In this document: piece after piece, positions 7,007 to 42,647 of the stretch
Layout: every line of letters begins with the position of its first letter
Numbering within the stretch: the stretch's first letter is position 1
Source: a virus
Strand: one strand, 5' to 3'
DNA length: 64,000 nucleotides
IMG/VR virus record: IMGVR_UViG_3300045988_080644
Notes under the pieces: generated by a model
What the model was told of the DNA's origin: nothing
Database searches by the model: none
The model's input: the letters and a program-made list of their open reading frames with translations, nothing else
Position numbers and translations under genes: made by a program

Positions 7007-10000
7007 TGAAAGAAAATGATATTATATTAAATATGTTAGCTAACCCTAAATTTACTCTTGAAGATTTTCAAGCTGTAGGTTTAAATAGTGATAACACTGG
7101 GTTACAATCAGAAGATAAATATTTACAAAGTGATAAGATTAAGTCTGTTAGTGCCTTTTAGGATTCTAATGGGCAGTTTGATAAAAATAAATTTCATAAC
7201 TTTTACTAGAGTGCAGGATAGTTTTATAATTAGATGTCTAATGATGATTATGAGAAAGCTATTTTAGAACAAGCACAGTATAGTAAAGATAATATATGGG
7301 TAAATCCTAAGAAAAGAACTGTAGATTATAAACCAACTTTAGTTAAAAGAGCAAATCCAACTTTAGTAACTAATAGTTTGGAATAGATGGGTCAGATGGG
7401 AAAAAGGACATTATCTACTTCTGAAATAGCTTAGACACAAGCTGTAGTAAATCCTATTACTGGTGAGAAATCTGCTAGCCCTAATGATTCTTTCTTTTCT
7501 AATCTATTTAATACTTTAGTACTCGCTTCTTATGATAATGATGTAGTAGATCCAAAGACAGGAGAAGTATTACATAAGAAAGGTGACTTAAAATATAATG
7601 AGGATGGTTTACCTTATTATGAGACTTTATCAGGACGTGATGTACATGATAAATAGGTTCTTAATAAGATGAACACTCTTACCACTGATGGTTCTGTATG
7701 GAATAAATTTGACTTTTTTGATTCTGATGATTTAGATTAGAAGGGAATTGGCTCATCTTTATTAAAGAATGCTGCATTAGTGGGAAGTATGTTTATTCCT
7801 TATGTGGGTCCAGTAATTACTGGATTAAGTGTAGCTACTTAGACAGCAGGATTACTAGCCACATTAGGTAAACTTGTTGCAGGAAATGATAATCCTACTT
7901 TAAACAATATATAGGGATGGGCTAAGTCTGTTAATAGACAATCTGCTACAGAATATGCTTAGCAACATACTTGGTGTGCTGAGAACTTTATTAATATGAT
8001 TGGTGATACCATAGGATAGTTAGCAGAATAGCGATGGATATTTAAAGCAGCTCCTGTATTATTTGAAGGAAAGGATGCTTGGAAAGTAATGTCTAAAGAA
8101 GGCTATGATGCTTTAAAGAAATCAAAGCTTGCAGAGTTACAAAAAACATCAAGTTTAACTACTGACAAATTATTGTAGGATGCAGTAAGTGAAAAGAATG
8201 TACCCTTATTACAATAGTACATGACTGAACTTAATGCTATTAATGAAACTAAAGCTGCTAAATATGTTGATGATTTAGTTAGAAAAGCTAACAATATAGG
8301 CAGTCCTCTTTCTAAAGCTTACATGATAGGTATTACTGTATAGGATACTTATGGTAATGCAAAAGCTGCAGGAGCTTCAGACTTAGAGGCGGCTTTATTG
8401 ACCCTTGGTTATGCTGGAGGTGAAGCTTGGATTCTTAATACTGGTTTAGGAGAATGGATATTACCTGAATTACATATTGACAAGTTTAAAAATAAAGCTA
8501 TAGCTGAAGCTTTAGTTAAACCAGTTAATGATGCTAAAGAAAGATTAGAATAGACTGGAGACAAGCAAGGATTTGTAAAAGAATTACTCAAGATAGGTAG
8601 AAATGTAGCTACTAACGTATATGCAGAAAAAGCTATGGCTAAGAAATCTGCTGAAGTTATAGGAGCACATGCATTAGGTGAAGCATTTGAAGAAACTTCA
8701 GAAGAGTTATTAGCAGATGCTTCTAAAGCGATACTTAATATAACTAGATGGTTAAGAGGAAAAGATGCTCTTAATTTCTGGGATGGAGATAATGCTTTAG
8801 ATAGATATACTATGTCTGCATTAGGAGGTTTACTTGGTGGAGGGATAACTTCTGCTGCAACTAATTTTAGTTAGGTAAGAAGCTTAGCTGGAATGGATAA
8901 CTCTGCAGCTATGTAGCAACTCTTATATATGGCTAATAATAATTAGTTAGGTGATTTCTTGAAACAAGTAGATAAAATGACACTTGGAGACAAGAATAAA
9001 TCTGCTACTAAAACTATATATGATTCAGAACAAGGAGTAATATTTGCAGAAGGAACTAAAGATGATAATCAAGACCTTGCTGCTAAACAAGCTATTCGTA
9101 ATTAGGTTAAATTTATTGACAATATATTAACTACTAATGGTGCTAAGATAAGTACTGACTCATTACTTAGTAAATTAGCTATGGAGGATTAGTAGGATGT
9201 TCTTAGGAATCTTAAAATAGGTAATTTAAAAAATACCAATGTTATAGGTACATATGCTTAGGACTACTTGAATTTACAAGCAGATTTAATAACAGCCTCA
9301 GCTTAGTTAAAAGCTATTGATGATGAAATAGGTGATGTAAAAAGTGCCGCAACACCAGAACAATAGAAAGCAAGAACAGATAAAGCTGCTGAAATTGACG
9401 GCATTAGAGGTAGATTACAGGAATATCTTAATGGCACCATCTCTCCTGATTTTATTAGAGATGCTGTATTTGAGATAAATCCTCTGATTAATGACGGTTT
9501 TGTTATTACTTCATTAGAACAATATACAAAAGCTAAAGTAGGAAAATTACCTAATTAGCTATCTGATACTGAGCTTACAAAACTAACTGAAGAGTTTAAA
9601 AACTACATGAACAGTGATGGTAAAGAGTATACACATACTGCTGCTGCAGCTTACTAGAATATGATGGAATTGGGTTCTCCTATAGTGCAGCAGTATTAGG
9701 AAATAATTAAATAGGCTAATGTTAATAATAATGCTCAATTTATATAGGATTTTAACTAGTTTATCACTAACTATTTAATTAAGTTGGATAGTATTGATAC
9801 TACTGACTAGGAGGCTTATCAGACTAAAGCTTAGTTATTAAATGATTCTCTAGCTTACGGAGCACTTAGATAGATGGCACAACCTTATCTAAGTGAGGAT
9901 TAGAGAAATCGTCTATAGAGTATTGCTGATAGTACAGAGACTGATCCAAATGTTATAGCGCAATTAAATCAAGAAGCTAATAATATTCTTATGGAAACTA

Positions 10001-13000
10001 TCTCAACTAATGTTGATAACCTAGTTAAACCAGTACTATAGTAGGGATTCATACATCCTGAAGCTAGAAAAGCATTACTCTAGGGATTGTCTAAGTTAAA
10101 GGATTTAATTGCAACCAAAGCAGATAATGACTTTATGGAGGTTTACCCAGGACATCCAGATTATGAGGAAGCAAAAAAACGTCGTAAAGAGTCTGTAGAA
10201 AATATTCATCAAATTGATGATTTATAGAAAAAAATTGAGAAACTGCCAACCACACCTGCTTTAGAGTTTATTGATAAATTTAAAATAGGGGCAACCAATT
10301 CTTAGTTAAAGTTTTCAGACCATTGGTAGCAGACTATGGATTTATTAGATAACAATAAGGATGATATGTCTGAATTTGGAACTGATGAAGTATGGGAAGC
10401 TAATAATCAAGAGGCGCTTAGACTAGCTAAAGCCTTTAGGTCAGTACTTAATGGTATGAAAGTTGATAATGCAGATATAAATAACCCAACAGGTTATTCT
10501 AGAATGCTTAATTTAGTATATTAGAAATCTGCACAGAAAAATTATGTACCTTTAGCAGAAATAAGTACTTAGGAAGCTAATATGATGCTAGAAGATGTCA
10601 GCAAAATTATAGCTAGACTAGAATTTGCTGATACCTTAGCTAAAATGAATAGGGGTTAGAAGCTTAAAGAATAGAACAAAGTAGCTGCTAGAAAAAATCA
10701 ATTATTATATAATGGTACAAAAAGACTTATTGACACTTTATCAGACTCTGATTGGAAAGATACTAGTATAGCTGATTTAAAAAATACTTTTAATAATATT
10801 ACTACAGAAGTTAAAGATGCTTTAGAAGGCGAGGGAGTTAAATAGAGTAAAGAAACTAGAGCTGCAGTAGAAAAATATATGATGCAGTTAGATAATGCTA
10901 TATATGATTTCTTTCAAGCTAATAAGGATTCTAAAGGGGAATTAAGCGTTGAGAAAATAGGAAAGTTATTAAAGAAATTTGCAGGCAATGCAGGATTCTT
11001 TTAGAAAACTAATAACATACTTAATGAATCTACTAAGTCTCTAAGTGATAATTCTTATATTTGGTATTTAGCATCTAGAGCAGCAGTTAGAGCATCTGAT
11101 TTTTATGGTTCCTATAAGAAGGCAGTAAATGACAAAGTTGCTCCTATTGCTAGTTAGGAACTTGCAACTTATTTAGGAGTAGCAGCTATAGCTAATATGA
11201 ATACTCTTAACAAGTTTGTAGATGCATATAGAAATACTGTTGTTTAGGAATTTAATAATTTATCTGAAAAAGAGAGAACTGACTTATTAAACCAGTTTGA
11301 TAATAGTGGTGAGGCATATTCTAAGGATTTACTTAAGTACTTCGGGGCACATGATGTTCTTCCTCAATATAAGAATATGATATTTATAGAAGGTATTGCT
11401 GGAAGTGGTAAAAGTAAAGCAGTATTTAGAAATGTAATTAATACTATAAATCATATTAATCCAGAATACTTAAAAAATGCTTATTATGTACATGAGACTA
11501 GTGATTCTGCATAGAAAGCGGCTGAAGACCTAGAATTACAAGGATAGACTTTTGGACGAGTTGATTTTTTAAAACATTTATCTTCTGAATGGAAAAATAT
11601 TAGAGATAATAGTAAAGACAGAAAGAATTACTTATATAAAGATTCATATAAATTTGATCCATTTACAGGTAAATTAGAGAATACCTGGAAATTAAATAAA
11701 ATAGCTGATGCTCCTAAGGTAATTTTTATAGATGAGATTTCTCACTATAATTAGTAGGAAGTCAGTATGATAGAATAGTGGGCAAAGGAACATGGAACTA
11801 TTGTACTTACTGCTGGTGACTTTGATTAGGATACATCTATTGCTTTTATAGATGATGTTAAATATAAGGGAAATCCTGTAAGTGTAACCTTAAATAGAAA
11901 TAATTTTATAAGAAGTCCTAAGTTAGGGGTATCTTTACGTACTTTAAATAAATAGCTTACCAATTGTACTAAAATGATGTAGTTAGCTATTTAGAATCTA
12001 AATGATGGTAAAGATGTAGATTTAAATTTCACTTATCTAGATAACGATCCAGAGCACTTAGGTCTGTTTGGTGTAAAAATAGCTAAGCCAGTTAATGTCT
12101 TAAAAGGTTTAAGCAAAGAGGAACTTGATAGAATTGTTCCTACTATAGATTTGATGGTATCTACTTCAGGTGATGAGAAAATAGGATATATTTATCATGA
12201 TACTAATACTGAATTATATAAGTTATTAACTACTAAATATAAGGATAAAATAATACCATATAAAGATTCTGATGCTTAGGGTCTGGAAGGTAAATATTAT
12301 ATAGTAGAGAATGATATTCATTCTAATGTACCTGATTCTGTCTATTTAAGATCTTTGTATACAGGTATAACAAGAGCTTCACAGGGAGTTTTAGCCATAA
12401 CACCAACTACTACTAAGGGTATTAAAACTATAGGGACATCCTAGGATAAGAGATTTTAGTTAGAGACCATAGGTGCTGAAGCTATTAAACATGCTTCCAA
12501 AGAAAGATTAGAATAGTTAGAAGATATGGTTGATGATAATAATGCCATAACTAAATTAGAAGCACCTACTAATACACCTACTCCTACTAAGCCCCAAGTT
12601 TCAGGTGGTTTACTTCCAATTTTAGCACCTGCAAGTGTTCCTCCAGCTAATACTGCAACTAGTTAGGCTGATGCTAATATAGAAGTTGAGAATTTTAAAA
12701 AGCTTATATATAATCTTGATGGCACTACAAATTCAATAGCTAAGAAATTAGATCAGGAATTTGATATAATAAGTGTTGAAGCTAAAGAGGATAATGGTAA
12801 TTGGATTCCTACTGTTAAGTTAAAGAATGGGGATGATGAGTTTGGTGTTCCTTTAGTAGATTTCAATAAAGAATATACTTTATAGAAGAAGGATGATAAA
12901 ACAACTGTTCCTCTTTACACAGTTGGACAAACATTTTTATTGCAAACAGGTCCTACAGACACTTAGATAACTATTGATGAAGTCTTATCTGGAGAACCAC

Positions 13001-16000
13001 TTACATATAAGGTACACGATAAAGAGGGTAAATCCTTTGAAATAACATAGGAATCTATTTAGAAATTGTATAAGGGAGAAGTCCCTACTGAACCTATAAC
13101 TCCATAGATTACTACCATAACTACTGGAATGGAAAATACTTCAGAAGAGGAATATGAATCTGCAATATCTCAATCTAATATAGAAGACACTGTTGAGACT
13201 CCTAAATCAGTAGGCACTCTATATACTATGAATACTTACTTACCAGGTATGAAAAATGACAATGGTAAAGCTGTATTTGATGATGATTCTCCAGAAAGTC
13301 AAGCTAGACATGATGCACGTATTGATGGATTTGTAGGTTTATCGAGAATACTAAAGACTGATGATTGGAAGGAGTTAGATGACTACTTTGCCTACTGTAG
13401 AAACGCTCTATTTACAAGTGAAAGGAATGCTGATGCAGCTAAATATTTAGCTAATATTTTAGGATTAACAGGTAATGTTAATATTAGATATGCCTTAAAA
13501 AGTTCTGCAGGTAGAATTAATTCTTCAGACCCTCGCTATTATAGATATGATTAGGGAGAAAATGAAAAATGCGAGTATTTACATTCTGATAGTAAGGATG
13601 CAAACGATGCTATGAGAAAAAAGGTGGTAGCCATCTTATTTAATGATGGAAAGCCAGTTCTTGAAATCCCAGTAGCATCTTTAAATTCACCTATTTCACT
13701 AATTTATTATACAGATGAAGAAGGCAATTTATTACATCCTGATTTAAATAAAGCTTATACAGATGCATTAATTAAGTATTAGGGTAACAAGAATTAGAGT
13801 GATTTAGCAGTATAGGAAGTAATTAATTAGTTTGATAAGAGTGGAACAGACTAGGATATAGTTGACTTATTTAAAGTGTATAGATTTACAGGAAATGGAA
13901 TATTCTTTTTTGATGAATCATTTAATCTGGCTGAATAGTCTCCTACAGGAATTATACTTACCGGAGAAAAAGGTAAGTTACAATAGAATGGTAGTTATTA
14001 GACTTCTAATAAATTTATAGATGTGTCAGAGTTAGCTAAGAACCCTTAGTTTAGGGTATCCAAAATATTGACATCTAGGGACGGTTTAGTTAATGGAACA
14101 CATGCTGTAAACCCAGGTCATTCTTTCATTCTAGTTGGTAATCCTAAGGAATTTGCAGGAACTACTGATTTAGTTAATTAGTATGAAAGACAAATAGCAG
14201 ACCCTAAGGCACCTAAAAAAGTATCTTTATATTATGTAATGCCTCCTAAGACTACAGTATCTGCTTGGCTTACTAATTAGCATAATTTATATTTAAATAC
14301 CTTGGGATAGAACAAATAGGTATATAATATAGGTAATGACTTCACAGGATATAGAGTATTAGACTGCTTAGATAAACAAGGTCTTTTAGATTCTATACCA
14401 TCTATAGGAAGTACTGCACAAGGCTATAAGTCGGGACAAGATGTATTAGATTCTATTAAAACAATACTCTCTAATGTTAGAGCTATAGAAAGTAAATGGA
14501 AAGGTGATTTAGCTTTAGATAACTCTAATCAGATAGAGGGTAGAGGTGAGGAAGAATACTATTAGATGCTAATTAACTAGGGAATGAAAGAACCTGATGC
14601 TAGACGAGTAATGTCTATCAAAGAAGTTAATTAGTATCTTAGACAACCTAGTTCATTATTATTTTAGGAAGGACGTACCAATAATTAGGTTCTTAATGCT
14701 TACTTAACTTGTATGGTTTGGAATAGGACTAAGGCTATCGGTTAGAAGGAAGTTATTACATATCACCCTGAAGTGCTTGATTAGATATAGTAGGCGTGTG
14801 AAAATGCAGAGGAACCTTTAAAAGACATATTCTATAAAACTCAATATACAGATAAAGCTCATGGTTCGTTCCTTGAAATATAGTAGAGAGCTAATTGGTA
14901 GCTAGAAGGCATAAACGGAGATGCAGCATTTAGAATTAATGCTCGTATCGACACAACTAATTTTACATCAGATGAACTTCCAATAGCTAGAATTGCTGGA
15001 GAAATAGAATAGAAAGCCATAAGAACTAAAGATGGCAGGGAAGTAAAAGTATGGAGTATGACTCCAGATGCTAAATAGAAATATGAGGCAGTTTATTTAG
15101 ACTAGAAAAAATTAGAAAATAAACCAGACCCTATTGATGAGTATGCTCCTTATATGCAAAAAATAGGAATATCTGAAAAAGAATTAGCTAACATAATAGC
15201 CTTAAACCATGGAGACAAATCTGCTATACAAAGAGATATAGCTAGGTGGTTTAATTCTTAGGATGTTCATAATTTTGGATTCACATATAATGGCAATATT
15301 TATTTATTTAATAATTCTGAATATTCATTAATTTCTAGACCTACAAGCTTAGCTACCACAGATAACTTAGTTTTAAAGGGAGTAGATAATAATGGAGAAC
15401 ATGATATAACAATCACCTTCAATGTAGATGGTAATGGTAATATTACATCTATGTAGGGTAATGTAACTACTTTTAAATAGGTAAGTGCTGGACGTTAGAT
15501 TCCTGATTATATGGAGAGTATGGAAGAGCAATTAAAGGATAAGAGGTCTTCGTGGGAATACTATAGGGATGATATTCAAAGGGAAGACCATGGAATAACT
15601 TATATAACAGGTATTCCCTATCAATCAACTATAGAACCTTCCATAAACTTAGCTGTTGATTCTGGTGTACTGCCTAAAAAGTATGCAAAGTATTTAAATA
15701 AAGATAGACCTGGCTCAATAGCCTTAGAGGACTTGCAAGAGATAATTGATATATTTAAGAAAAAAGGTATTAATAGTCCTACGAATTTGCTATCTTATAT
15801 TAAAAATGATGGAATTACTGTATCTAAGGAAGAATGGGAAGAAGCTTAGAATGGTATTAGGGATTCTATACCTCCACTATTAGCTAGAAATAGTGTCTTT
15901 TTAAGAGAGTATGACAAATCTATTTCAGCTCAAGGTAAACGAGATCTAAAACGTAGTTTAGGGACTGCGAAAAAATTCCTATCCACAGTTAAAAAGAAAG

Positions 16001-16251
16001 GAGACAAGGTTAAAGAAGAAGCTTGGGAAAAAGTGATTTCTATAGTAGAATCAATAACGTCTTCATCTACCCCTACTATATCATTAGAAAATGAAGATAC
16101 TGTTATTTAGAATGGTAAAAGATATACAATAATTGATAAAGAAAACTTAATTGGAGAAGATGAGGTTACTAAAGAATAGGTAACTTTAACTACAGATAAT
16201 TTAATTAAAGAGGAAACTTAGTGTATTCCTGTTAAATTTAATATGATTTAA
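7006..16251 (+). CDS. Giant multidomain protein (3081 aa with TAG=Gln) with hydrophobic Gly-rich segments and an embedded SF1 (RecD/Pif1-like) helicase/ATPase domain
   Basis: ATG 7006 (TAATG overlap). Frame 1 is open for 9246 nt to TAA 16249-16251. Walker A GIAGSGKSKAV (~11392-11421), Walker B VIFIDEISH, motif III GDFDQ (Q=TAG 11827-11829), YTGITRASQGV (~12355-12390). Track ORFs 8635.., 10336.., 13129.., 15511.. are all in this frame. Confidence 0.85.
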
Positions 16252-16252: not shown

Positions 16253-19200
16253 ATGGCAAAATGTTCACTTAAAAAATCACCTAATGGAGCGTTTGGTGGT
16301 TACAGTTAGGAATCTATAGAAGAATTAGAAGACTTTGTAACCACGGCTTTTAATGAAGCTCTTATGAATGCTGGAGATGGATCAAACGGAGGTTTAATTA
16401 AAAAAGCAGTTCGAGATGCATTACATAAAATTGGTGATTAGTATTCTATGAATTAGTTAGATAAAATAGCAGAAATTACATAGAAGTTAATTGATAATTC
16501 AGAAGATTTAGTATTTTTGAATGAGTACATACCAATAGAGGGTATAAAGAATGCAATAAATCCTAAATATAGATAGACTGTAAAAGAATCAAACTCTTCT
16601 CTGGGAGAACCAGAGGAGGGTGAGACTCTTGCCAAGAAGTCTCAATTCTTAGATGATGTATGGGGCACTAATGTACGATTAAAGAACGCCTATAAACAAG
16701 AAGTAACTAATTAGTTAATTAATAAGTTTATTATAGATAGAGAGCATGGTGTAATTGTAAAAAATGCCGGGGACGCTAACCGAAATATTCGGGACTATAA
16801 GAATAAATTATGGGGAGATATTAAAGAGTATTTAATTGGAAAAGGCTCATTAGATGAGTTTACTCCAGATATTTATGAAGATGGAGAATATACTGGCGTC
16901 TTTGAAGATGAAGAGGTCAGAAAAGCAATAAGAATTTTTGGTTCTTGGGATGCTCAGAAGATACAATCTGATAGAGATACTGATGATTATAAAATATTTA
17001 AGAAATGGTTTACTCTAAAGAACTTTGACAACTTTACTAGAATGTTGCTAGGTAAAGCTATTATTATTAAACCCGGAACTGAAAATACATTTAGTAATGA
17101 AGATAATTACTCCTTTGCTACCAAAAATGATGCGGTAATAACAAGCTGGAGAACTAATGAAGATGTTGTACTAGAATAGGAAATTGGAGCATTAGCACAA
17201 TCCTTAATTAATTCTACACCATATTATTAGTATAGAAATGATGCAGAAACAGGCTAGTATATAAAGTTCTCTGATTTCTATTAGATTATAACTAAATTAA
17301 AGGAGTCTGTTTATAATCCTGTAACTTCTGATATTACATTTAGGAGATTAGATAATAGATATTAGAATTTATTTAATTCAGGTTTACTTACTCAGCATGA
17401 ATTAGATCTTATACAAGGTAAATCTTTAAAAGATTTAATATGTAGTATTAGAGAAAATCCTGCATTATATAGTAAACTATTATTTACAGCTATAATTAAT
17501 GATAAAGATACCCTAGTGAGATTAAATTTCACAGATGAAGATTTAAATAAAATGTACTCTTTATATAAGGGTATATTTGCTCCTAAGGATAAGTCTATTC
17601 AGGCTATTTAGGCTAAAGAAGATTATAGAGCTTAGAACTACTATAACTTAATAACTTAGGTAGTTGATTCTATCAATTCTGTAAAATTCCTATAGTATAA
17701 TATTGAAGATGGAGTAGTAAAAACAAGACTCTTAAAAGATTATTCTGCTGAAAACGTAAGAAGATCTATAGAGAATAATATAGCATATACTAATTCTTCT
17801 CATATTTTATCTTCTTTATTTAAAGAAAGAGAAGTTAAATTATATAATATATAGACATTAGCTGATAAGGCTAACACTTTCTCAGGAATTACATGTACTA
17901 TTCCTGACATTGGTATAATTGTAGAGGTCAATGAATTGGGAAATTACATTTCTTACAAAGATGAGTTTGGCAAGCTTTTAAGTTCAGAGGAAATAGAAAG
18001 GTTAATCGATAATCCGAAAGTAGAATCTCTATGGCAATTTATTGATGATAACTTATCTATTGGAGTTTCTTATGATACAGATTTGAGAAAAGCACTTAAA
18101 ATGTACTCGGTGGGTCATACTATATAGGATTTATTAAAATTAACTTCTACAGTACTTCTTAATAAATATATAGCTAATGTAAAAGGAGAAAGAAGTCATG
18201 GTAAAGCTGCATTAAATGACTTATTTGATAATATATATAAGGGCTATCCCAATAAACCTAAATATAATTCTGAATTAATGGAAATGGGATTATATAGCGA
18301 TGCTATGACTCCTATTCTTGATAATATATCTAAAGCTAAAGCACTCACTTCTGGTATTATGTAGTCTGCTTCAGTTAAAGATGCTGATGGTAAAACCCTA
18401 TCTCAATAGACTCTTAGTCGTTTATTAGGTAACTTAATTCCTTAGTATAATTGGATTAAATCTTACAATTGGGTAGGTAATGATAAGGTTAATCCATTCT
18501 CTAAGATGTCCCTTATGTAGCCTGGTGTATTTAGAGGTATATATACTACAAGAGAGGTTAAGTCTCCTTATGGAAATAAACCTCAAACATAGTTTACAGT
18601 ATCTGAGTTTAGTTAGAGTGCCTTTCTATATGATTTCGTTGATGGTTTTACTACTAAAAAGGATGTTCGAGGAGATGTAGTTATTGGTAATGGAAAAGTA
18701 GGATTACTACCATCTGTAAACTCTGATAAAAATACTATTAACAGAATGTGTGTAGATTTGATGTAGAAAGTTGATTCTAAGCATCCGGAACTTAATGGTA
18801 AACAATTTATAGACCTTGATTCTAAAGAATTACAAACATTAACTAGTGAACAACTTGGACACTATTTCAAAGCAGTTAATTAGAATATACAAAAAGATTT
18901 TGATAAGTTATTTAATTGGATAAACGGTAAGTATCATTTAGCTATATATAGTTTAGAAGACATTAATAGTCGTTATAGTAATCCTGCTGATTAGTTATAT
19001 CAATGGGTAAAAGAGTACAATGACACCCACAATAATGTTATATAGTTAATTGATTAGACTCACTATTCTATTGATAAAAAAACTAAGAGACTTAAATCCA
19101 ATATGCTTTTAAAAGGATTAGAGACTAGATTTTCTGACCCTAGTAAGCTAGCTAAATTTATGCAGTGGAAGGAGACAGAAGTTTTAAAATCCTTATTAGA

Positions 19201-22200
19201 TGAAAATGTAGAAATTCGTCTTATTGACGGTACCAACTCTTCTGCTAAGACCTATTTAAAAGACAATTATAAAGATTGGATTCATAATGGTAAAATGGTA
19301 TTTGCTAAGGTTAACGGTAAGGATATATTAACTAAATAGGACTTAATTAATTTAGGACTAGATATTAATGATCCACATTCTTGGAATATAGAATTACATC
19401 CTATGCTTAGTAAGTATAATGCGTTAGACTATTTCTTTACTTCTCAATATATGTATGCAGGAGTAGGATGTCATACTAATCATCCTTCTAAGGCAGATTA
19501 TAATGTCCCTATTATTTATAAGCATCCAAAATTAGGTTTATCTACATTCTTATAGAATAATCCTCAAGCTGCAAACTATCTCATGGATTTTGATGACTTC
19601 TTTAATGAAAAAAGAGATGCATTTATTGAAGCCCAAACTCATGTAGAAAAATCTATCCCATTCTCTGATGATGAAGGCTATGTTTACTATGACACTAATC
19701 CAGAATGGACAAAAGCTAAAGAAAATTATTTAATATAGAATTAGAATAATCCAGAATTTTAGGATTTTGTAAAGAAAGCATGGAATGAAGCTAAACTTAT
19801 AGCTAAGGAATAGAATAAAATTTTATTAAATTCTAGTTCTATTGTATTAAAGATGTTCCCACAGGACTTTAGTAAAGTATTAACCATGTCCTAGGAAGAA
19901 GCAGTAGCACGTGGTATGGATCCAGATTGGAAAAATACAATTGATACTGCTTTAAATGGTTTAATAGTACCTAAAATAGAATTCAAATCAGGTGAATATT
20001 TTGACAAAGCATTTAGCTCTTATTTAACTAAAGAAATGGATAAACTTCTTCAAAATGAAACTGAAGATGAAGCATCTCGTTTTGCAGCATAGCATAAGAG
20101 AAATGTATCTTATACCGCAGCCATGCATGAGTTTCAATTAAATCAAATAGATGGCGTGCCTTCTGTCTATAATATGGCAATTATGTCAGATTTGAAGTCT
20201 GATGTGTATACAGTATAGGCAGATGTGGATAAAGCTACTAATTTTGATGGTGCTACCTTTGTAAATCCATTTATAGTTATTTGGGAGAACAACTCCCTTA
20301 ATGGAGATAAAGCAGGTATAAATAAAAAGCAATTTGTACACTTTTATGATAGAGCCACTGGTACAGGAGGTATTATTAAAACTGCAGGATTTGGTTTAAC
20401 TAATGACAAAATAAGACAGTTTGACTTCTACCGTAATATGATGTATAATATGACCGGTAAGAAATGGAAAAATGCTGATGGTTCTCAATATATTATGCGT
20501 GATGGGGGTATTCTTAAAGACTTTGAAGACAACGACATTGACTATGGTGATTTCTACTATAGAAAAGGGGCTAAATTTTATAAGAGACGTATTTAGTCCT
20601 ATGATGGAAATAACACTTATTCTATATTAGAGCAAGAAGTTGATGAAAATGGAGAAGCAAAGGGTAATGAGAATACTATTCAAGTATAGGTAAATTCTAA
20701 CTATGATGTGTGGCAAATGTTTGGAGGTATGAATTCTGTAGACTTCTTAGATGGAACTCTTCAAGGTTCTGAAAAGTCTATAGAAATGACTGCACATGCT
20801 GCCAATATTTATGGAACTAAAAAAGAGGGTGTTATCAGAGCGCAGACAGCAGATGACATTATCTAGCCTATGAAGCATTCTGATATACATTATATGCCTA
20901 CTATAGGTGCTGTTAAACACGGTGCTGCAAACATAAATCCAGTCTCTTCTTTCTTTAGTAGAAATGGTCTAAGTTTTATGTAGGTAGAAGTGAGATAGGC
21001 TGGTATTTAGCTTGATAAGGAACATCAAGCTGATAATGAAGACTTGTCTCTTATGACTTAGGTTATTTCAGCTGCTTGTTCTATGGGATACACTAAGGGA
21101 GAGGCTACTAATCTATATAATGCTTTATATAGTCTATCTAAATAGGCTACTAAGGCATTTAGAGACGAAATGGGAGACCTATTAAATGGATTCTCTGATA
21201 GCTTTAATGCTGCGGTAACAGAAACTATTATGAAGTCTTTGATTAATGCTTCAGCTACAGACGGTGATATGCTATAGTTAGTAGCAAAGAATATTATAAA
21301 GAAAATAAATGCTGAAAAATAGTTTTCTATCAATAAAACTAACTACGCTGACATTGATAAAGAAATTCCTTATAGTGATGCTGCTGTTTCTGCTAAGGTA
21401 GTTAGTTCTTTAACCGCTGCATTAACTAAAGCTGGAATTAAAACTAAAATGCCTGGTCTTTTAGCAGTATTAAATCCAGCTGAAGGTATTATAAAAATGT
21501 ATAAAGTGCCAGCCAAAGACAAAGATGGCAATATTCTATTAAATGAAGATGGTTCTACTGTATATAAATATGTAACTATGGATGCCATAGAAAAAGAGTA
21601 TGATACAGAGAATGCTTTTGAAATAATGGAATAGTTACAAGCAGAAACAGGACCACTTAGTTATAATACTGATGAAACTGGATTAATAACTAGTATGCCT
21701 GATGTCAAAATAGGACGTAAATACTTAGTTACTTTCTCAGATGGGGTCAACAAATCTACTAAGGTTGTAAATGTGACATTACCTCATAGAGTGGAGTCTG
21801 ATACTAGTACTGTATTTTATAATAATGTTCCATATCAAGAATAGACTATGGGATATAGAAAACTTATAGACTATTTAAATGGAATAGTTAATGAGGAAAC
21901 TGGAGTTACTAACCAAATTACAGAAGTTAAGGAGTTTTTAATAGGAGGTCAGGACTTAGATAGTTATGATGTAAAATTTTAGGATTCTTTAGGTAATAGA
22001 TGGCAAATGTCTGATTTAGATATTGTACAAGATTATTTTGAAGCAAGAGAATCTAAAGACCCCAGAAGAAAAGTATTAGAAATATTATCTAAGTATGATA
22101 AAGACTAGGAATTAAAAGCTGCTATAATTAAGGAATTTAATGAGTCTAATAATTCAAATAAAGTTAAGATTGTCAATGATTTAAATGATAATTTTAATGG

Positions 22201-25200
22201 AATTTTCTTAACTGAAACTCCTATGTATAAAGAGTTCTTTTAGAAGTATGCATTAAAATTCTTAAATAGAGAAATGCAACGACAGTTGACCGCTTTAAAT
22301 CCTGAAAATACAGAGCCTTTAAATGTATTAATTAATAATAAAGTAGTTACTGTATAGCCTTCTACTATTGATATAACTAGTTATGGAACAGTAATACCTA
22401 AGACAGCTGCTTCCTCTTTTGGTCTTAATTAGTATGACTAGGTTAGTGATATTGTTAACAATCCTGATTTCTTCTTAGATAGATTAGCTAAGAGACTTAA
22501 TACTAAAGTTTAGGATTATTATAAGGATGGATAGTTAGTATATAATTACCACTTGGAGCTAAAAAGAAATGATGGTAATCATGTTTATATAAGAAGAGGG
22601 ATTGATAATTCTGACTTCGCCAATGAAATTTAGTGGTTTAGGTATGTTGATTCTGATGGACATGTATTTAGAGTAAACAGTGATGGAAATATTATGCATC
22701 CAATGTATAGTGAGAATGATAAAATATATACTGACTATGATGGAAATGAAATAATAGTTACTGAAGCTAAAGATACTTGGAAAGATTCTAAAGGCAATGA
22801 AGTAAAGAATCCTGATATAAAGAAAATTCGAGGCATCACCATTGATTAGAAGACTGGAGAAGAAATCCATTTAGATTCTCCATTTACCTTTTACTTAGAT
22901 AACCTTAATTATAACTTTGTAAATTTAAATGCAAATTGCTCAGAAGCTGAACTATTAAATTTATTAGATGCAGCCAGAAGTAGCAAATCTAAAAAGGCTA
23001 ATAATTTTGTAAAGAGACTTGCTAAAATAGGTAATTATGATAAATAGGTGGACTATTTAGATAAACTTACTAAGTATGAAGATTTAATAAAAGGAGATAC
23101 TAAAAATCCAGCATATTTAGCCTTACAAAAGGAATCTAGATAGATATGGACTTCTTTTATGAAATATCTTGAAAATGTAGCAGCACGTATCCCTGCTTAG
23201 TCTTAGTAGTCTTTCATGGCTCAAAGAGTAGCTATGTTTGAGAATACAGATACAAATAATGCTTATGTAAGTAAATTCTAGTTCTTCTTACAGGGAAGTG
23301 ACTTGGATATTGATGCGGTATCTATACAAACATTTGATATAAATAGCAACGGTATTTATGAAACTTATTCTCCGTATGCTAATCTGGATTCACCAGCACT
23401 TCTTAAAGTTTCTGAAAAATACTTACCGTTCCCAACTGGAGATAGGATAAAAGTTGAAGAAATTCATGATCCAACTATAACTACTATGCACTAGTTAATA
23501 GCTAAATAGCATTATGATGGTAAAAGATTATTTGGATTAGCTAATAAACTTAATTAGTAGGATGCTTTATTCTTAATAAACTATACTAGAAATAAGGATG
23601 TAATCGTAGAGGTAAATACTAACAGTGAATAGAATATAAAAGATTTAGCTGATATTCTTGAGTCTATTAATTCAGAGGATTGGTATTCTTACGAAGATGA
23701 TATATCTAATACTAGAGCCTTAACAACTTTATTATTTCCAGATAATGAAATGGTATTGGATGTAGATTTATATGATAAAATAGAAAATGGTATAATTGAG
23801 GCTATAGATAAACATAATACTTATTTAAAGAATAATTCTAAAGCTAAGAACGATAGAATATTAAAGAATTTTGCTGTAACTTCACTATTAAATATTATTA
23901 AAAATCCAGTTAATCTTAGAGAGGCTTAGTCTTCTGTAGATGTTATGACATCAACTGCTAAGAACTTAACTAAGGCTTCTCCTAAAAATGCAGTACAAAA
24001 AACCTTTACTCCAGGTAATGTATTTAATAAAATCTAGAGTATCAATGAGAATATGGTTGGTAAAGATGGTATTGCTATCTGTGCGACAGGTCTTAAATCT
24101 TTCTTTGCATTAACTCATATGTATAATACAGTATTAAATGATGAAAACACTAGTAATTAGGAAAAAGAAGCTTTAATGTGTAAGGTAACAATTGGAGGTA
24201 AAACATATAGAGGACTCGCTAACGTAAATGCTAATTAGGAGTTAATAGAAAGTTTAGCAGATGCCGAGAATGGTAATTTTACTACTTTACAGAATTACTT
24301 ATTAGCTCAAGAATGGGAATCTGATGCTGCTAATGAAGCTTCTGCTTTTCTGTCTCTTTCAACTGATAATGCTAAGGAGTTAGCTTTAGCTAAATTAAAT
24401 GCAGGTACTCAGACTTTGGGTATGTATTTATATGGGTTATCTCTTGGAGTTCCAGTAGACACTTTGTTTAAAATAATGACTTCTCCATTTGCTTTTAGAT
24501 TAGTAGAATTAGCAAAAGGTGATACATTTAGTGGTAATAGTGGTTGTGGAACTATAATTGGTACTCTAGACTACTTACATAAAGACCCACTAGAATAGCT
24601 TTCTAGATTTAATACATTTGATTTATCTACATATAACGAAGGTAAACCAAAAGATTAGAAAATATTAGGTCCAGCTGATTTTGCTTGGTAGTTATTGTAG
24701 AATAGTATAGCAGATGATTATAATGAAAAATTACCACTTCTTAGATAGTTAGCTTATAAAGGTAATGCTATTTAGTTAATTGAAGATTTAAGGTCTAAAG
24801 TTAATTAGATTAGTAGTGTTATCTAGACAAAAGATGAATTTAATCTCTATTCAACCTTATATAATCAAGCACTAGACTTTATGGAATAGTATATTGCTGA
24901 TGTCTAGCTAGAGTTAGATAGTGGAAGTTACGATACTGTATACGGAAAATCCATAATAGCTACAGACTTAGAAACTCTTGCTCTTGGTGCTGATGAATAT
25001 AAAGAAATAGGTAAAATTCTTAGACTTAATCAAGAAGTAAAGACTAATGCTTTAGATTTACAAAACTAGGTAGCTAATATTGAAGAAGTTATAACTAGAA
25101 GACTCAGACAATTAGCTAGAGTTGAAAATAGGGGAAGCTACTATAGTCATGGTGCCACAAAAGATGAGTTAAAAAATCCTGATAAATATAAGATTGATTT

Positions 25201-26635
25201 AGAAAAGTTTTTATATGATGAAGTATACTAGTAGGAAAAAATAGCGTAGTATGATAGAATTAAACAATCTTATAATGTTTTACGTGTTCTTACTACAGAT
25301 CCTTAGTATAAAGGTTATATGGAAACCTTATATATGGCTCATCAAGGTCTGTTAAATAAGTAGTTAAAGTATAGATTTACAGTAGGTAAAATTGCAGATT
25401 TTATTTAGAAAAATAAAGTTACTGGTAATTTATAGTAGTAGGTACTTAAAAATGGTAACAATTATGTTGACTATAAACTAAGACAAAATTGGATGCGAGA
25501 TAGTAAAATACAGATTACTATTCCTGGCAGTACCGATAAAATGAAAACTTATGCGTTTATAGGAACCCCAAATAGTTATAGTTAGTTATACTTTGATAAA
25601 ACTATACAACTGGGCACTGATATGGGAGATGCTAATTTTAAATTATGGATGGAGCAAACTCTTATTCCTAGACTTAAAGCGGACCCAACATTAAAAGATA
25701 ATATATTTATATAGCATTTAAGTCCTATAGTTAACTCAAGAACTAATTTGGGTATGACTGCGGTTTATTATGGATTAAATGGAATAAACATGTTGCCTTA
25801 GTCTGACGCTGAAAGAGAAATGTTTGATATACATAAAGACGCTTTTAATAAATTAGCAACCTATGACTTGATTAGGGACGCTAAAGGTCATACTTTTGCC
25901 ATAAAAGACTTATTTTATCTATATTCTTTAATATGTAATAACGGTAAATTTGGTCCTACTTCTCTACATAAAATATTTGAGGATTATCTAGATTCAGGTC
26001 TAGCCTAGAGTTATAAACACTTTATAGCAGAAAAAGATAGAGACTTAGATTTCTACCAGGATTTAGTAAAGACATGTACAGATGAATGGCTTGCACCTAT
26101 GAGTTCTCCTTATGTTGGAGGTTCTAAAGTACTCAAATATAAGGATTAGAACAATGAATAGATTCTACTTTATAAAAAGAAGGAAAAGAAGTCAAAAGGT
26201 GGATATGACTATGATGTCGAGTAGGATATGGATGACATCTTTATGAATGATATGGGATTTGATCCAGAAGGTGGAAAAGACCCTATGGCAGAAATCAACA
26301 ACTATGTTAAATAGGAATCTAGTGCCCTAGCTAAAAGAGACTATAGTTTCTTCTCAAATCCTGAAGTTAAATATAATACATCAGGTTTTCAAGTATTATC
26401 AACTAAATCAGAACTAATTAATTAGCATCCTATAACCTACGAAGTTAGAGATGGTAAACCTGTATTAGTAAATATAGGGGGTGATGGGGAGATTGCAAAA
26501 AAGTTTATGAAATTAATGAAAGATCGTAAGGGAATATTACCTACTAAGTAGATTCTTGGAACAGATGGATTTACTGCAGTAATTAATGAAGAATAGATTG
26601 AATCAGAATTAAATAGTATAATAAATTGTGGATAA
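16253..26635 (+). CDS. Giant protein (3460 aa with TAG=Gln) containing a two-barrel RNA polymerase-type DxDxD catalytic motif; crAss-like virion-packaged RNAP candidate
   Basis: ATG 16253, two nt after the upstream TAA. Frame 2 is open for 10383 nt to TAA 26633-26635. ARIPAQSQQSF...GSDLDIDAVS has DLDID at 23300-23314. An in-frame triple TAG lies at 25433-25441. Track ORFs 17936.., 19103.., 20225.., 21449.., 23303.., 24416.., 25820.. share the frame. Confidence 0.8.
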
Positions 26636-27683
26636 TTGTTTAATTAAAGATTTAGAATATCGGACTAAGCTATCTTAGTCTGGTATTCCTGAATCTATAT
26701 TTTATCCATTTTGCAATGGATTTATGAATAAGTATGGGAGATTACCTAATCTAGATGAAATTCCAAATGTTGATTCTTCTCAACATATAATTAATAAACT
26801 GCATCTAGATAGTAATAGCTCAACATCTATAGATAATATCATGTCTTCTACTAATACATCAAGTATTGAAGAAGCTAATGTTAGTTTAAATGATACCTAT
26901 AAAGATAAAGATATAAATATAATTCCTTTATATAAAGAAGCTTTAGTTGACATAAAAGATAGACCTTCCGAATATAAAACAATAGAATAGGAAAAACATA
27001 AAGTAGATAGAAATCCTAATATGCAGGGAGTATTTAATTAGTTATTTAATAAGTTAGAGAAATAGTATGGAGTACAATTACATACTATTTCAGATAAAGA
27101 ACTGGCTAGTGATGAATGGTAGGGAATACCTGAAATTTAGACAGCTAATGCTTTTATTTATAATGGAGATGTATATATAAATACAGACCATGCAAAAGCC
27201 GATGCTCCTATACATGAAATGACTCATATGTTATTAGGTTCTATTAGATTTAAAAATCCTGATCTTTATTATGGAATTGTACAACAAGCCTAGGATTTTC
27301 TAACATTTAATTAGTTTATAGAACAAAACCCAAATAGAGCTATAAATGATAATATGGAAGAATTATTTGTTACAGAAATGTCTAAATATCTAGCAGGGGA
27401 ATCTAGCATTATTGAATAGTTAGATGAAACCGTTATTAATGAGTTACATTATAACATGAAGAGACTATTAGATACTGCACTTATGGGTTAGTATAGTGTA
27501 AAAAGTATTCCTGATTCTAAGTTATATAGAATGTCTTTAGCTGATTTAGTAGAAACTGTAAATTCCCAGATGTTAGAAACAAGTTTTTATGGAAGCCTAG
27601 ATGACGCTGCTTTGCATAGAGTATTAGCTAATACTAAGTCAGATTTAATGAAAAAAGGTGATTTAAGAGAAGATTGTGTATGA
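26628..27683 (+). CDS. Putative Zn-metallopeptidase-like protein (HEMTH motif), TAG-recoded; start uncertain (GTG 26628 or ATG 26724)
   Basis: Frame 0 is open from 26625 to TGA 27681-27683, with in-frame TAGs after 26988. PIHEMTHMLLG has HEMTH at 27213-27227. Its stop overlaps the next ATG (ATGA). Confidence 0.7.
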
Positions 27684-30600
27684 AATGTATTTATAGTTAT
27701 AAAGGAAAACAGTTTTAGTCCATACAATAGTTAGATGATTTTCTATTAGAAAAACAAATATATGAAAGTAAATATGGAGATTTAGTATTCTCTATGACTG
27801 AAAAATAGTTGTCTGCTTAGAATAGAATTGATAGCATCAATAAAGAAGCAGAGGAACTAAATAAAAAATATGCTGAAGCTAAGAAAAACGCGTCATTTAT
27901 AGACTCAGAAGAAATATTAAAAATGACTCGTCCTTATGTAGGTGTAAGTGAGTTTTTAATGGATTAGAGAAATGATGAAGGAGAACTTTGGGTGCCTACA
28001 TTTACTACTGAGTATTGGGCTAAACAATACTTAAATTGGAGTTAGGGAATTTACTCAAAGGACGAAAAAGATGCATTTTTTGATGGTGATGATTCTAAAG
28101 TATAGCCTGTAGAATTAGGAAATCAGGGGGATTGGCGTAAGGCGGATGGCTCTCTAAAGGATGATTTTGGAACTATTGAATAGAATAACTTCCGTAAAAT
28201 AATGGAAGATAAGTGGAAACACTAGGCTAAGTATGGTGATGATATTCATGCCATTATGCAGAGTTATTTTGCTAGAATAGGCGAAGATTCTGATGGAAAT
28301 CCTAAGTATCGATATGAATTATGGGAAGGAGATCAAGGAGCTATGCATTTAGCTAAGAGTATTAAATATATGCGTAATAAAGGAATTATTACTGATGAAA
28401 TGACTGATGCTAAAATTAATAGTATATTAGAAATAGCTAGAAATTTAAGAGATTAGTTATAGAGTTAGTATGGCAAAAAATGTATATTTTATCCTGAAAT
28501 TACTGTTAGTGCCAAATTGAATCATGAATATGAAGGTAGAGACGATTTAAGTGTATTAGGTCGTCTAGACTTATTAGTTATTGATGAAGATGGTATTCCT
28601 CATATTATGGATTACAAAACTTCTCCTAAAAATTACGATGACTTTGTCGAAGCTAAGAAACTCACATTTACTTACTAGTTAAGTACCTATGAAAGAATGC
28701 TTAGGAGACATGGTTTTAATACTACAGCCACAAGCTTAAATATTATACCACTTAAACTAAATAACTTTAGAAAAGAAAATGGTAAATGGACTTACGATGA
28801 TGTAGTACCTGGTGGTAATTTACTAGAATCAATAACTGATAGAGCCAATAAAGATTACATAGCTAATAATCTTGATGAATACATAGAAGCTCCATTATTA
28901 TTAGATGGGGATTCTAGTAAGATTACAGAGAATGTAACTGATTTAATGAAAACTTGTTTTCCTGAACATGGTAATGTAGCCACTGATGAATAGATAAAAA
29001 AGATGATTGATGGCTAGGGAGGTTTCCATGAAAATAAGGAAGCGGGTTCTTTGGAGTTTAAGCCCAAGGGATGGACTAAGACTATATCGGTAAAGTAGAA
29101 GGAAGGGGCAGAAGCTGAATTATTTAATAAGGTTAAGAAATTCTTTACAGGCTAGAGAGAACGTAGTTTAAAGAGAACTTAGGAAATTAAGAGAGCACTT
29201 AAACAAGCACAAGCTGAAGACACTAGATAGATTTAGTTACCTAATTCTATGAGTGATTGGACTAAAACAAGGCTATCTAAATATTGTAGTAAATCTTGGG
29301 AAGTAATGGAAGGTCATGCACAAGATGTTGCTGAGCAATTTGGTATGATATTTTTATATAACAAAGCTAATGATTTAGTAGAGGTAGTTAAAATTAGTTC
29401 TGCAGATTTATCTTTTTAGCATTCTTGGGGAAAAGGTAGATAGAATATTATTGGGGCAAAGGAAGCTGATTTGGGAGAAAATTCCAAGTCAGACAGTTTG
29501 ATTATTAAAGCTACTAATGGTAACATAGAGCTTATGGAAGCCATGGCAGTTTTAAATAATATTCAGTTTAATAAGTTTATTTAGTTAGGAAACATAAGTG
29601 TTCTTAATCCGGTATTTGGTTAGGGAGCTGAAACTAATTCTAATAAAGAGCTGCTTTATAACTGGAGAAAACTTAGAAAAACCTTTAACATGGATGGGGA
29701 AGATTAGTTTAAATAGGATGGTACTATTAAATTATTGTCTTTAGCTGAAAGAGCCTATCTGGAGTATGCTGATATAATGGATAGAGTTAATGACAGGTGG
29801 CAAGCTCAAGAATTTAGTAAGTTTAAACCTGCTATGACTGAGTTACAAAGTTCCTTACAACCTAATAATGTAGAAGAAAGTCTTGAAGCTCTTAATTAGC
29901 TTAAAACCAAATTGGAGAAAGACTTTGGAATGAATAAGGATATTTTAACCAGGGGAGAAAATAAGGGTAAAAGTATATATTCTGAAGTATAGAATTATGA
30001 CTAGCAATATACTAAGTAGATGTACCAAATAACTCTTAGAGCCATTGCTGAACTTAGCGGTTTTGATATTAGACAGGAAACAAAAGCACACAGTTCTTTC
30101 TTAGATAGTTTAAATATCTTAGAAAATGGTATGTCTGGAAATATGATAGATAACCCAGGTAACTTTGGTAATAGACTTCTTAATTAGGTAACTTAGTTAG
30201 CTCTTGATGGTTATTAGAATACTCGAGATATGTCAATTAAAAGACTTAATGCACTATCTGAAAAAGTACGAGAGCTAAAAAGAGGTGAAAACTATGGGGT
30301 TATTAGTGAGTATGGATTTGGTAATTAGGCTTCTCTCTATAATGGTATGACTTATTATGATACTGATGGTGACTTTAAATTTAAAAATCCTTGGAAAGAT
30401 AATTCCCTACCTGAACATAAAAAAGAGTTTTTAAAATGGGCATTAACCGAAATAGCTAAAAATAAACATCCTGATTGGACTCCCGAAGTTATTAAAGATA
30501 AAATAGAAGCAAATGATCCAGATTTCTTTTAGGTTCCTTTAATAAGGGCTGATGCCGCATCTAAAATTAATGCAGACGGATGGTTAGGTTGGTTAAAAAG

Positions 30601-32524
30601 TAAAATGAGACCTTTAATTAGCAAAGATAATGGAGCAACTTTTAAAGAGAGAATTCAAAATACTTTAAAAGATATACAATCTAAATATTTATCTGATGAA
30701 ATAGATTAGTAGCAAAGTATTGACGGTGAAGTATTTAAAGTAATAAATACTATGGATTAGGGAAGTGGTCCTGGCAGATTAGACTTAATTAAACATCTAC
30801 AAGGAAAATACGGATCTAATTGTTTTGAAACGGATATAGAAAAAATATTAGGTGCTCATATGATGGCATATGCTACTCAACAAGCCATGGAAGATAGAAT
30901 GCCTTTAATTAAAGCAGCTTATATATCCTTAGCAGTAATGGGTAATAACTAGGGGGTAGACTATTCTTCTGATGAGAAATATATTAAAGAATATGTTCAA
31001 AATAAAATAAATAAATTAGCAATAGATAATCCTTAGTTAAGACATTTAAGGAGTGCCACTGGAATGTTACAAAAAAGTGCTTCTTGGATGGCATTAGCTT
31101 TTTCACCTTTACAAATGTCTTATTAGAGTCTGGAAGGTGTTTGGAAGGCTGCTAAATTAGTTATAACTAAACCAGATGGTAAAGAAACATTTAGTTTTTC
31201 TAATATGCGTAAGGCTATGGGTATTGTATATAAAGAATTGTTTAATTATAGTGAAACAAATTCTGTAATAGAGGGTTGTAACGCTCTTTATGGTATAAAC
31301 GATATGGATGCTGCCTCATTTGCTCAAAACAATAGTACTAATAAGCATGGTCTGTTTAATTTCTTTGACAGAATTGCATATTATTGGTCTTCTCGTCCCG
31401 ATTTCTATAATAGAATGTCAATATTCACAGCATAGATGCTTGAAGATGGTAGTTATGAAGCTCATTCAGTAGATGCCAATGGTAACTTAATATACAATAT
31501 TAAAAAGGATAAGAGATTTGAAGCATTATTTAATAAACCAAAGGGTTCTCCTGAATATAATAAAGCAAAAGCCTTATTCTTAGCCACTGCTTAGTAGTTA
31601 GTGAGGGAAAACGCTAGAAATGCCGATGGTTCATTATACACCATAGATTTAGATAATCCAAATTTACCTAAAGCCTACTCTAATAAAGAGTCTGAATCTA
31701 TGAAAGCTATTGGGGATACCATGTATGGATATTACGATAGTTCTAAGAAATCATTATGGCAATCTACATTCTTAGGAGGCCTTATGATGCAAATGCAAAC
31801 ATATTGGTCTGGTAAAAAGAATTAGTATCTTGCTCCTGGAGGTATTAAAGCACAGGGTAAATGGGTCTAGATGGTAAGTCCTAATGGTAAAAAGTGCTAT
31901 TATTCTAAAAATGAAAATGGAGATATTGATAACTCCTCAATGCCTATAGAAGAGGGAGATCCTAGAGCTAGTGAAGTACCCTTTATGCAATGGAAGGGTA
32001 GATTTGAAGAAGGCGCTTTTATAACCTTATATGATGTACTTAAAAGAACTATAGGACATAAGGGAAATCTTAAAGCTGCTTGGAAAGAGAAGTTAGATGG
32101 AACTGACGAAGACTTATAGAAACTTTATAAGTAGAACATGAAGTTGATAGTTAGTGACTTACTCGGTATGTTACTTATTGGTTCTTTACTAGGCGGATTA
32201 TTAGAAGATTTAGCTGATGAAGAAATTAAAAAGGCTAAAAAATCTGCACAGATTGGAGATGCTATGGCTGCAACAGCCTTAAGTCTAATAGCTAAGACTG
32301 TAAGAAATTCAGCTCTAGATTTTAACATGATAGACTCTTTGTTTGGCTTCGTAGGGGATTGGAATCCATTCTCTATTAGTTATGCAACTAATTAGCTAAG
32401 TAATGGTTGGAGTCTTATAACTGGAGATAAAAATTGGGAATAGACTCTATGCAGTGCCTTCTCTGCAGCACGCTAGATGAGACCAATACTTAATTGCATT
32501 AATTAGTCTTTACAAGAGGATTAA
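27680..32524 (+). CDS. Large protein (1614 aa with TAG=Gln) with an N-terminal PD-(D/E)xK (RecB/Cas4-like) nuclease domain and a C-terminal hydrophobic segment
   Basis: ATG 27680. Frame 2 is open to TAA 32522-32524. GRLDLLVIDEDGIPHIMDYKTS (DYK at 28610-28618) is followed by TYQLSTY, where Q is TAG 28676-28678. Track ORFs 28256.., 28697.., 30347.., 31205.., 31601.., 31871.., 32138.. share the frame. Confidence 0.85.
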
Positions 32525-42442: not shown

Positions 42443-42647
42443 CAATGTTTGGACTATTTCATTATCCCATAGGGATATTGGGCGCTTATAGGATATTATT
42501 GCTTCAATACTCAATCCTTAGTCTCTGAACCTTCTTACTACTTTTACTTGATTCATAAGCTTGGCTGCAGATTATTCTAATATTAGACCTTCCTGCAATT
42601 CACCCAATTTACAGTAGATAATTACTTATCTACGCCGCATACATTTT
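42443..42647 (-). ncRNA. Putative ORF-less group I-like self-splicing intron in polA (~205 nt)
   Basis: The 5' exon ends in U (42648) and the intron ends in G (42443). Exon CCGU can pair with intron GCGG (42638-42635) across a 9-nt loop, a P1-like helix with a U-G wobble. There is a GUAA tetraloop hairpin (GATAA-GTAA-TTATC) and further stems (TGCAG/CTGCA, ATCCC/GGGAT). Confidence 0.6.

Follow-up and report, generated by a model that had tools for sequence, protein, structure and literature searches.

A TAG-recoded giant gene of a crAss-like gut phage very probably encodes a divergent single-chain, two-barrel RNA polymerase

Our analysis argues strongly that gene E, the largest gene of the human-gut phage in IMG/VR virus record IMGVR_UViG_3300045988_080644, encodes a single-chain, two-barrel, DNA-dependent RNA polymerase (RNAP) of a large crAss-like phage and is the orthologue of gp66 of Cellulophaga phage phi14:2. 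By analogy with gp66, the enzyme would be packaged in the virion and would carry out early transcription. In the 64,000-nucleotide stretch analysed here (the window), gene E lies at 16253..26635 on the + strand and comprises 3,460 sense codons, among them 105 TAG codons read as Gln, followed by a TAA stop; its extent is supported by homologues and by a full-length sibling of 3,462 residues (P0237). A sequence-only reading of the window had proposed that the product of this gene (here E) is a crAss-type virion RNAP (vRNAP), and the catalytic motif, the profile and fold comparisons and the synteny with gp66 described below support that proposal.

The catalytic-type motif DLDID (23300..23314, +), made up of D2350, D2352 and D2354 with Ile at position 4, aligns with 1361-DFDID-1365 of gp66, the catalytic motif in which every Asp is essential (Drobysheva et al., 10.1101/2020.03.07.982082). 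Ahead of it lies a beta'-like barrel segment, R-I-P-A-Q-S-Q-Q-S-F-M (23186..23218, +), aligned with YRIPNQGQSS of gp66, in which R2312, P2314, Q2316, Q2319 and S2320 are invariant and in which Q2316, Q2318 and Q2319 are specified by TAG codons. The sequence-only reading had located the motif at exactly these coordinates with an Arg-x-Pro segment about 35 residues upstream; the distance from R2312-I-P2314 to residues 2350-2354 is 38. The DxDxD string by itself is not above chance, as E contains four of them with 1.7 expected. Among homologues at <=60% identity, the three Asp residues of the motif at 2350 are conserved in 168/170, 165/168 and 165/166 sequences, whereas the other three strings show 11-80% conservation per Asp and none is kept at all three positions. 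Whether the motif is conserved in homologues, a point on which the earlier reading had staked its claim, can accordingly be answered: each Asp of DLDID at 2350 is kept in 165-168 of ~168 sequences.

At position 4, 24/28 family members have Ile and 3/28 have Val, and one or the other of these residues occurs there in all crAss vRNAPs (Drobysheva et al., 10.1101/2020.03.07.982082). The family consensus around the motif reads ARIPAQSMQSFM-x12-N-x-AYVS-x2-Q-x-LQGSDxDIDK. Thus a conserved DxD(I/V)D is preceded by R-x-P, and the same segment is found in gp66, which is annotated as 'Catalytic RNA polymerase subunit' and around D1361-D1365 has YRIPNQGQSS...TKTGSDFDIDKMYVM; the likeness is between RIPxQ...GSDxD(I/V)DK in the family and YRIPNQ...GSDFDIDK in gp66.

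Several relatives have a vRNAP gene that is broken within the catalytic motif; the copy in the window is unbroken, the equivalent site being 23305/23306. The relative with homologue P0004 carries a 346-nt group I intron without an open reading frame (ORF) between GSDY and DIDAV (L004:16193-16538; RF00028, 67.5 bits, E-value 1e-16), with the canonical U preceding its 5' splice site and G as its last nucleotide. Homologues P0004, P0005, P0010 and P0014 terminate at 'QGSD', while P0027 and P0029 begin at the motif. The presence of a group I intron within the DxDxD motif in relatives marks the motif as a conserved core.

Homology to gp66 extends well beyond the motif. BLAST directly linked gp66 1314-1375, at the motif, to many E-family proteins, and a family profile built from 23 members aligned by hhalign with gp66 1313-1685 over 359 columns (probability 97.5%, E-value 8.3e-12), covering the beta'-like barrel, the bridge helix and the trigger loop. 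In gp66 the bridge helix comprises residues 1529-1559 and the trigger loop residues 1598-1636 (Drobysheva et al., 10.1101/2020.03.07.982082). In the hhalign columns opposite gp66 ~1520-1556, E has a bridge-helix-like segment, ..MVGKDGIAICATGLKSFFAL.. (24026..24139, +), in which G2603, K2604, A2611 and K2615 are nearly invariant; opposite gp66 ~1598-1640 it has a trigger-loop-like segment, SAFLSLSTDNAKELALAKLNAG.. (24323..24448, +), in which D2705-N-A-K2708 is invariant. The motif and these two segments coincide with the invariant places of the family.

Structure prediction for homologues points to the same protein. AlphaFold models were obtained for P0038, which corresponds to E 2048-2779 (34% identity; mean predicted local distance difference test score, pLDDT, 67.8), and for P0007, which corresponds to E 641-2065 (36% identity; pLDDT 78.3, predicted template modelling score 0.69, residues 190-740 mostly >90). 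In a Foldseek search of 350,000 chains, the top Protein Data Bank (PDB) match of P0038 was the gp66 structure 6VR4 (probability 0.95, E-value 0.028), with bacterial beta' chains in the non-significant tail, and the sole significant PDB match of P0007 was again 6VR4 (probability 1.00, E-value 1.8e-8, ~1,190 columns). Because both models match 6VR4, parts of E both upstream and downstream of the motif resemble gp66. Significant matches among the predicted viral structures of BFVD were nearly all to crAss-like or uncultured gut-phage proteins, including, for P0007, the N-terminal half of gp66 (E-value 9e-7) and the 'putative RNA polymerase' of cr111_1. The comparison of the motif region with a crAss-like vRNAP that the sequence-only reading had called for is therefore positive at both levels, in the hhalign alignment and in the ranking of 6VR4. 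Its call for a double-psi beta-barrel (DPBB) at DLDID is answered in part: the alignment with gp66 implies such a fold, which we infer in this way because the P0038 model is weak right there.

A candidate for the other, Lys-bearing barrel lies upstream, where the earlier reading had pointed to about 20.2-20.4 kb. The most conserved upstream block (KRNVS.TA.MH, FDGATFVNP, KAGI.KKQFVHF, GGIIKTAGF; 20084..20407, +) corresponds to E 1282-1383, and K1282, R1283, D1332, G1333, K1359 and K1376 are invariant or nearly so. In the P0007 model it forms six or seven strands and one helix with pLDDT mostly 85-93 and lower values (70, 56, 62) around a loop at model residues 476-481. A second conserved basic block (QPMKHSDIHY..GAVKHGAANIN ... 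AGIQLDKEH; 20861..21073, +), with K1541, K1555, N1560, N1562, G1584, Q1586 and H1591 nearly invariant, gave a weak local hhalign match to gp66 1046-1073 (E-value 0.09) and possibly belongs to the same barrel after an insertion of ~140 residues. A beta-like barrel at 20.1-21.1 kb is plausible on these grounds. The interval that the earlier reading named does contain a conserved block, predicted to be rich in beta strands, but the residue-level match of this block to DPBB1 of gp66 is not significant. By eye, collinear pairs can be drawn between gp66 and E (KRVPATYT/KRNVSYTA, DAQAWITP/DGATFVNP, LKGVYF/KKQFVHF, YLKYSQAVL/IIKTAGFGL, DGVKVGA/GAVKHGA and GSQIQK/AGIQLDK), which we offer as an unvalidated lead. 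Just ahead of the upstream block, ~170 residues of E (~1088-1258; 19514-20026) are absent or variable in most family members and show 29% identity to the N-terminal part of a 2,007-residue giant protein of the Suoliviridae phages cr55_1 and cr1_1 (compare L001:15001-15498), a sequence similarity that suggests domain shuffling among giant proteins.

The genomic setting of gene E is that of gp66: in both phages the gene is flanked by two giant proteins and comes at the close of the late strand, ahead of a strand switch. Gene D (7006..16251, +), in the position of phi14:2 gp67, encodes a giant protein of 3,081 residues belonging to the transcription or cargo block, with 107 TAG codons and a borderline SF1-helicase-type P-loop (AAA_30, 26.8 bits with a cut-off of 27). 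Gene F (26724..27683, +; 319 residues), which directly follows gene E in the block that takes the place of phi14:2 gp65, carries HExxH (IHEMTH), a motif on which a possible zincin-like protease can be proposed, as in phi14:2 gp65, which has a zincin-like LHEIMH. Gene G (27680..32524, +; 1,614 residues), in the position of gp65, closes the recoded block and has a PD-(D/E)xK nuclease domain (phrog_1218; PDDEXK_1, 35.6 bits with a cut-off of 22). After D-E-F-G the coding strand switches at ~32.5-33.3 kb, as it does after gp67-gp66-gp65 in phi14:2, and a block of giant proteins ends the structural and late strand. None of D, F and G showed significant pairwise similarity to gp67 or gp65. Beyond the switch, the - strand carries a standard-code block for replication and nucleotide metabolism with PolA, NrdD, DNA and RNA ligases, PNK, an exonuclease and a sigma-like protein.

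The whole of gene E is open only if TAG is read as sense. Its ATG lies one base past the stop of the upstream gene, and its frame contains 105 TAG, no TGA and one TAA, the terminal one; given the regional base composition, the probability of finding no TAA or TGA over 3,460 codons is ~1e-104. The remaining five frames contain 112-595 stops each, and in the two of them on the same strand 186-510 of these are TAA or TGA. The TAG codons run from codon 19 to codon 3448, the longest stretch without one is 154 codons, and the standard-code product would be an 18-residue peptide. TAG accounts for 105/166 Gln codons (63%). These counts bear out the single alternative-code ORF of 3,460 codons that had been proposed, and they show its "dozens" of TAG codons, correct as to abundance, to be an understatement.

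That TAG means Gln in gene E is well supported by sequence comparison. With all TAG positions of E masked and ~200 homologues (<=70% identity) aligned, the residues opposite the masked sites were Gln in 19.2% of cases and those opposite CAA/CAG codons in 19.3%, with the same distribution; among background residues Gln is outside the eight commonest, each of which makes up <=9.1%, and none with a share above 5.9% is Gln. TAG codons 2316, 2319 and 2343 fall at invariant Gln columns, and homologues have Gln in 27/27 cases at two of the three TAG sites of the RIP segment. The reading of gene E in an alternative code thus stands on the Gln residues that homologues place at its TAG columns. Throughout the window recoding is a property of the late genes: in the seven + strand ORFs (1 to 32.5 kb) TAG makes up 370/592 Gln codons, and the 30 - strand ORFs (33.3-64 kb) contain no in-frame TAG and use TAG as terminator in 2/30, one of those running into an intron.

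Several observations weigh against our identification of E as a gp66-type polymerase. The full-length sequence with TAG translated as Gln matched nothing in PDB sequences, Pfam or PHROGs, and hmmsearch of the family hidden Markov model against PDB sequences returned noise and did not reach 6VR4, which is why profile-profile comparison was needed to reach gp66. The AlphaFold models are of P0038 and P0007, with 33-36% identity to E, and not of E itself; around the motif the P0038 model has a pLDDT of ~50-64 and the DPBB is not seen directly. Sequence-based attempts to map the upstream block onto DPBB1 of gp66 remained at E-values of ~0.1-0.5, with controls similar: hhalign of the upstream region against gp66 alone and against a 20-sequence gp66-family profile gave no significant mapping; with the ~140-residue insertion cut out the E-value was 0.13, compared with 0.31 for a reversed control; the global score of the mapping was equalled by 3/40 block-shuffled controls; and a focused profile of the upstream barrel recovered streptavidin noise only from the PDB. 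The distance from the upstream conserved block to DxDxD is ~950 residues in E and ~300 in gp66. Finally, no tRNA at all was found in the window or in a scan of 10 kb past its right edge, and the closest deposited relative, the 121-kb TAG-recoded MT835492 (L006-L008), whose vRNAP orthologue has 3,402 codons with 128 TAG, has Asn, Asp, Met, Tyr and Ala tRNAs only and no suppressor tRNA. With relaxed settings ARAGORN reported implausible intron-containing "tRNAs" within coding genes and a weak CUA tRNA in a late ORF of MT835492, all of which we rejected. A tblastn search with the most distant family member (P0075) gave nothing useful.

Besides their genomic place, E and gp66 (PDB 6VR4) have in common a single chain, the segment R-I-P-x-Q...G-S-D-x-D-I-D-K in which position 4 of the motif is Ile, homologous counterparts of bridge helix and trigger loop, and an upstream region with the gp66 fold. 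The two differ in size (3,460 residues in E, 2,180 in gp66), in the motif itself (DLDID and DFDID, respectively), and in code, with 105 sense TAG in gene E and the standard code in phi14:2; outside the motifs, pairwise identity is undetectable. In the wider two-barrel superfamily, E resembles Neurospora QDE-1 and cellular RNAP beta' in having R-x-P ~35-45 residues ahead of the Asp triad and differs from them in having Ile, not Gly, at position 4; no significant sequence or fold match to them was obtained. The E. coli beta' subunit has NRAPTLH ... NADFDGD.

In our model, D2350, D2352 and D2354 would hold the catalytic Mg2+, and the invariant Lys and Arg residues of the upstream barrel (20.1-21.1 kb) would complete the active site. 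The protein would be made late and packed into the capsid alongside its giant neighbours D and G, and it would be ejected with the DNA to transcribe the early genes on the opposite strand. Translation of gene E would require active amber suppression in the infected cell, because its first TAG is at codon 19, TAG makes up most of its Gln codons and the early block is without in-frame TAG. This dependence would tie synthesis of E to the late phase, when the protein must be packaged but need not transcribe. That E is made only after recoding, as the sequence-only reading also held, is thus what the distribution of codons suggests. An early gene (45159-46004, -) encodes a protein matching PHROG 351, 'RNA polymerase sigma factor' (E-value 4e-59), and this similarity suggests that the phage may redirect the host RNAP besides carrying its own polymerase.

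The alternative that survives best, improbable in our view, is that E, a descendant of the vRNAP family, has lost the ability to polymerise RNA and serves as a giant ejected cargo or structural protein. E is 60% larger than gp66, has long regions of unknown function and an unusual spacing of its conserved blocks, and the sigma-factor-like gene of the early block hints at some use of the host RNAP; all of this would suit such a protein. But the Asp triad, the R, P, Q and S residues of the RIP segment, the Gly-Lys of the bridge helix and the DNAK of the trigger loop are invariant in ~170 homologues down to ~25% identity, and this invariance argues for purifying selection on a catalytic site.

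Slightly less probable still is that E is a working two-barrel RNAP that stays unpackaged and acts inside the cell in the middle or late phase. Non-virion two-barrel RNAPs do occur in other phages, according to the abstract of 10.1101/2022.12.01.518664. Gene E, however, occupies the place of gp66, which is virion-packaged, at the end of a late structural strand that is TAG-recoded, and if E is produced only late, it would have to be packaged in order to transcribe the early genes.

Two further alternatives are refuted by the present results to the point of near certainty. An N4-type giant virion RNAP with the T7-like single-subunit fold would agree with E in size (~3,500 residues) and in the logic of virion packing, as summarised in the abstract of PMC13434306, but neither Pfam nor PDB sequences nor Foldseek gave a match of E to T7- or N4-type polymerases or to a T7-like domain, and the sole significant structural match is to the two-barrel 6VR4, in line with the profile matches to gp66. 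A decayed pseudogene or chance ORF, in which TAG would be a true stop, accords with the 105 stops counted by the standard code and with the 50-58-residue pieces into which GenBank gene calling breaks the gene, but is contradicted by the improbability of a frame so long without TAA or TGA, by the stops in the other five frames, by collinear homologues that span nearly the whole length of E, by the Gln residues that these place in TAG columns, and by the same TAG pattern in all seven + strand genes.

Returning to gene E as the gp66 orthologue, the absence of a suppressor tRNA from the window, from the sequence just beyond it and from the 121-kb relative makes it possible that amber decoding rests on an unrecognised agent, for instance a tRNA of highly aberrant form, some factor of the host or interference with release factor. 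Failure to detect a suppressor tRNA is frequent in TAG-recoded crAss-like phages, as stated in passages of Yutin et al. 2021 (PMC7886860). It is tempting to speculate further that the TAG load, with its first codon so close to the start, may act as an obligatory lock that delays the packaged polymerase until late, and that activities absent from gp66 may reside in the ~950 residues that separate the barrels, in the first ~1,240 residues of E and in its last ~700. We regard the combination of an unrecognised decoding agent, a translational lock and extra activities in the regions of unknown fold as unlikely.

Much of this biology has precedents. The passages of Yutin et al. 2021 (PMC7886860) on the 'transcription gene block' of Beta, Delta and Zeta crAss-like phages describe TAG-recoded RNAP genes with in-frame stops, PDDEXK nucleases and TAG-to-Gln recoding of late genes. 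The window agrees with these blocks in having several giant multidomain proteins, one with DxDxD, in-frame stops in the RNAP gene, a PDDEXK nuclease, recoding limited to late genes, a suppressor tRNA that is not always found, and group I introns in core genes. The comparison reveals no difference in kind, and those passages do not describe a group I intron within DxDxD itself. Gene E is thus a very divergent vRNAP gene of a kind already published, as is the notion of recoding-timed late expression, and its biology is nothing new in kind. What the analysis adds is a firm function for the largest gene of a phage that is very common in the human gut, together with conserved residues that can serve as targets for mutagenesis.

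The phage can be called very common because an early protein encoded in the window occurs in >2,200 blocks of an assembly collection. Its relatives in phage databases are only crAss-like or unclassified gut phages. An exhaustive profile search with the E family found 2,518 clusters (50% identity) at E-values <=1e-3 and 1,065 at <=1e-30, and most of the top matches have 3,000-3,900 residues and align through their C-terminal third, which is the architecture of E. Standard pipelines nevertheless miss the family twice, through its genetic code and through its divergence, and it has no Pfam or PHROG model. In GenBank, fragments of 50-58 residues named 'hypothetical protein [Crassvirales sp.]' share a 90%-identity cluster with the C-terminal part of gene E (the cluster of P0015) and come from contigs of 172-190 kb; one such fragment has been assigned to the bacterium Intestinibacter bartlettii (WP_415989783.1). 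Such GenBank and IMG fragments, dozens in number, are the only form in which public records contain this gene, an artefact that arises when recoded phage DNA is annotated with the standard code. The genome of the phage is probably ~170-190 kb, and so large a genome is consistent with the Zeta-type crAss-like group.

Elsewhere in the window, a bare HExxH occurs in two late proteins, gene F (APIHEMTHML) and gene B (3691-4938, +; TGVHEGGHMS), neither of which matched any family model. The early block contains a group I intron of its own (42432-42658, -; RF00028, 81.1 bits, E-value 5e-19), which interrupts the gene for the family A DNA polymerase: of the flanking PolA ORFs, that at 42630-44579 (-) ends in the intron and that at 42188-42514 (-) has PAHDE, a look-alike of motif C. 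An HNH endonuclease gene (56806-57576, -) adjoins the ORF of an anaerobic, NrdD-type ribonucleotide reductase (57864-59975). This spot varies among sibling contigs (L009-L012), which carry the HNH gene, a different one or none there, and in which an extra short NRDD fragment is called; the HNH gene looks like a mobile insertion.

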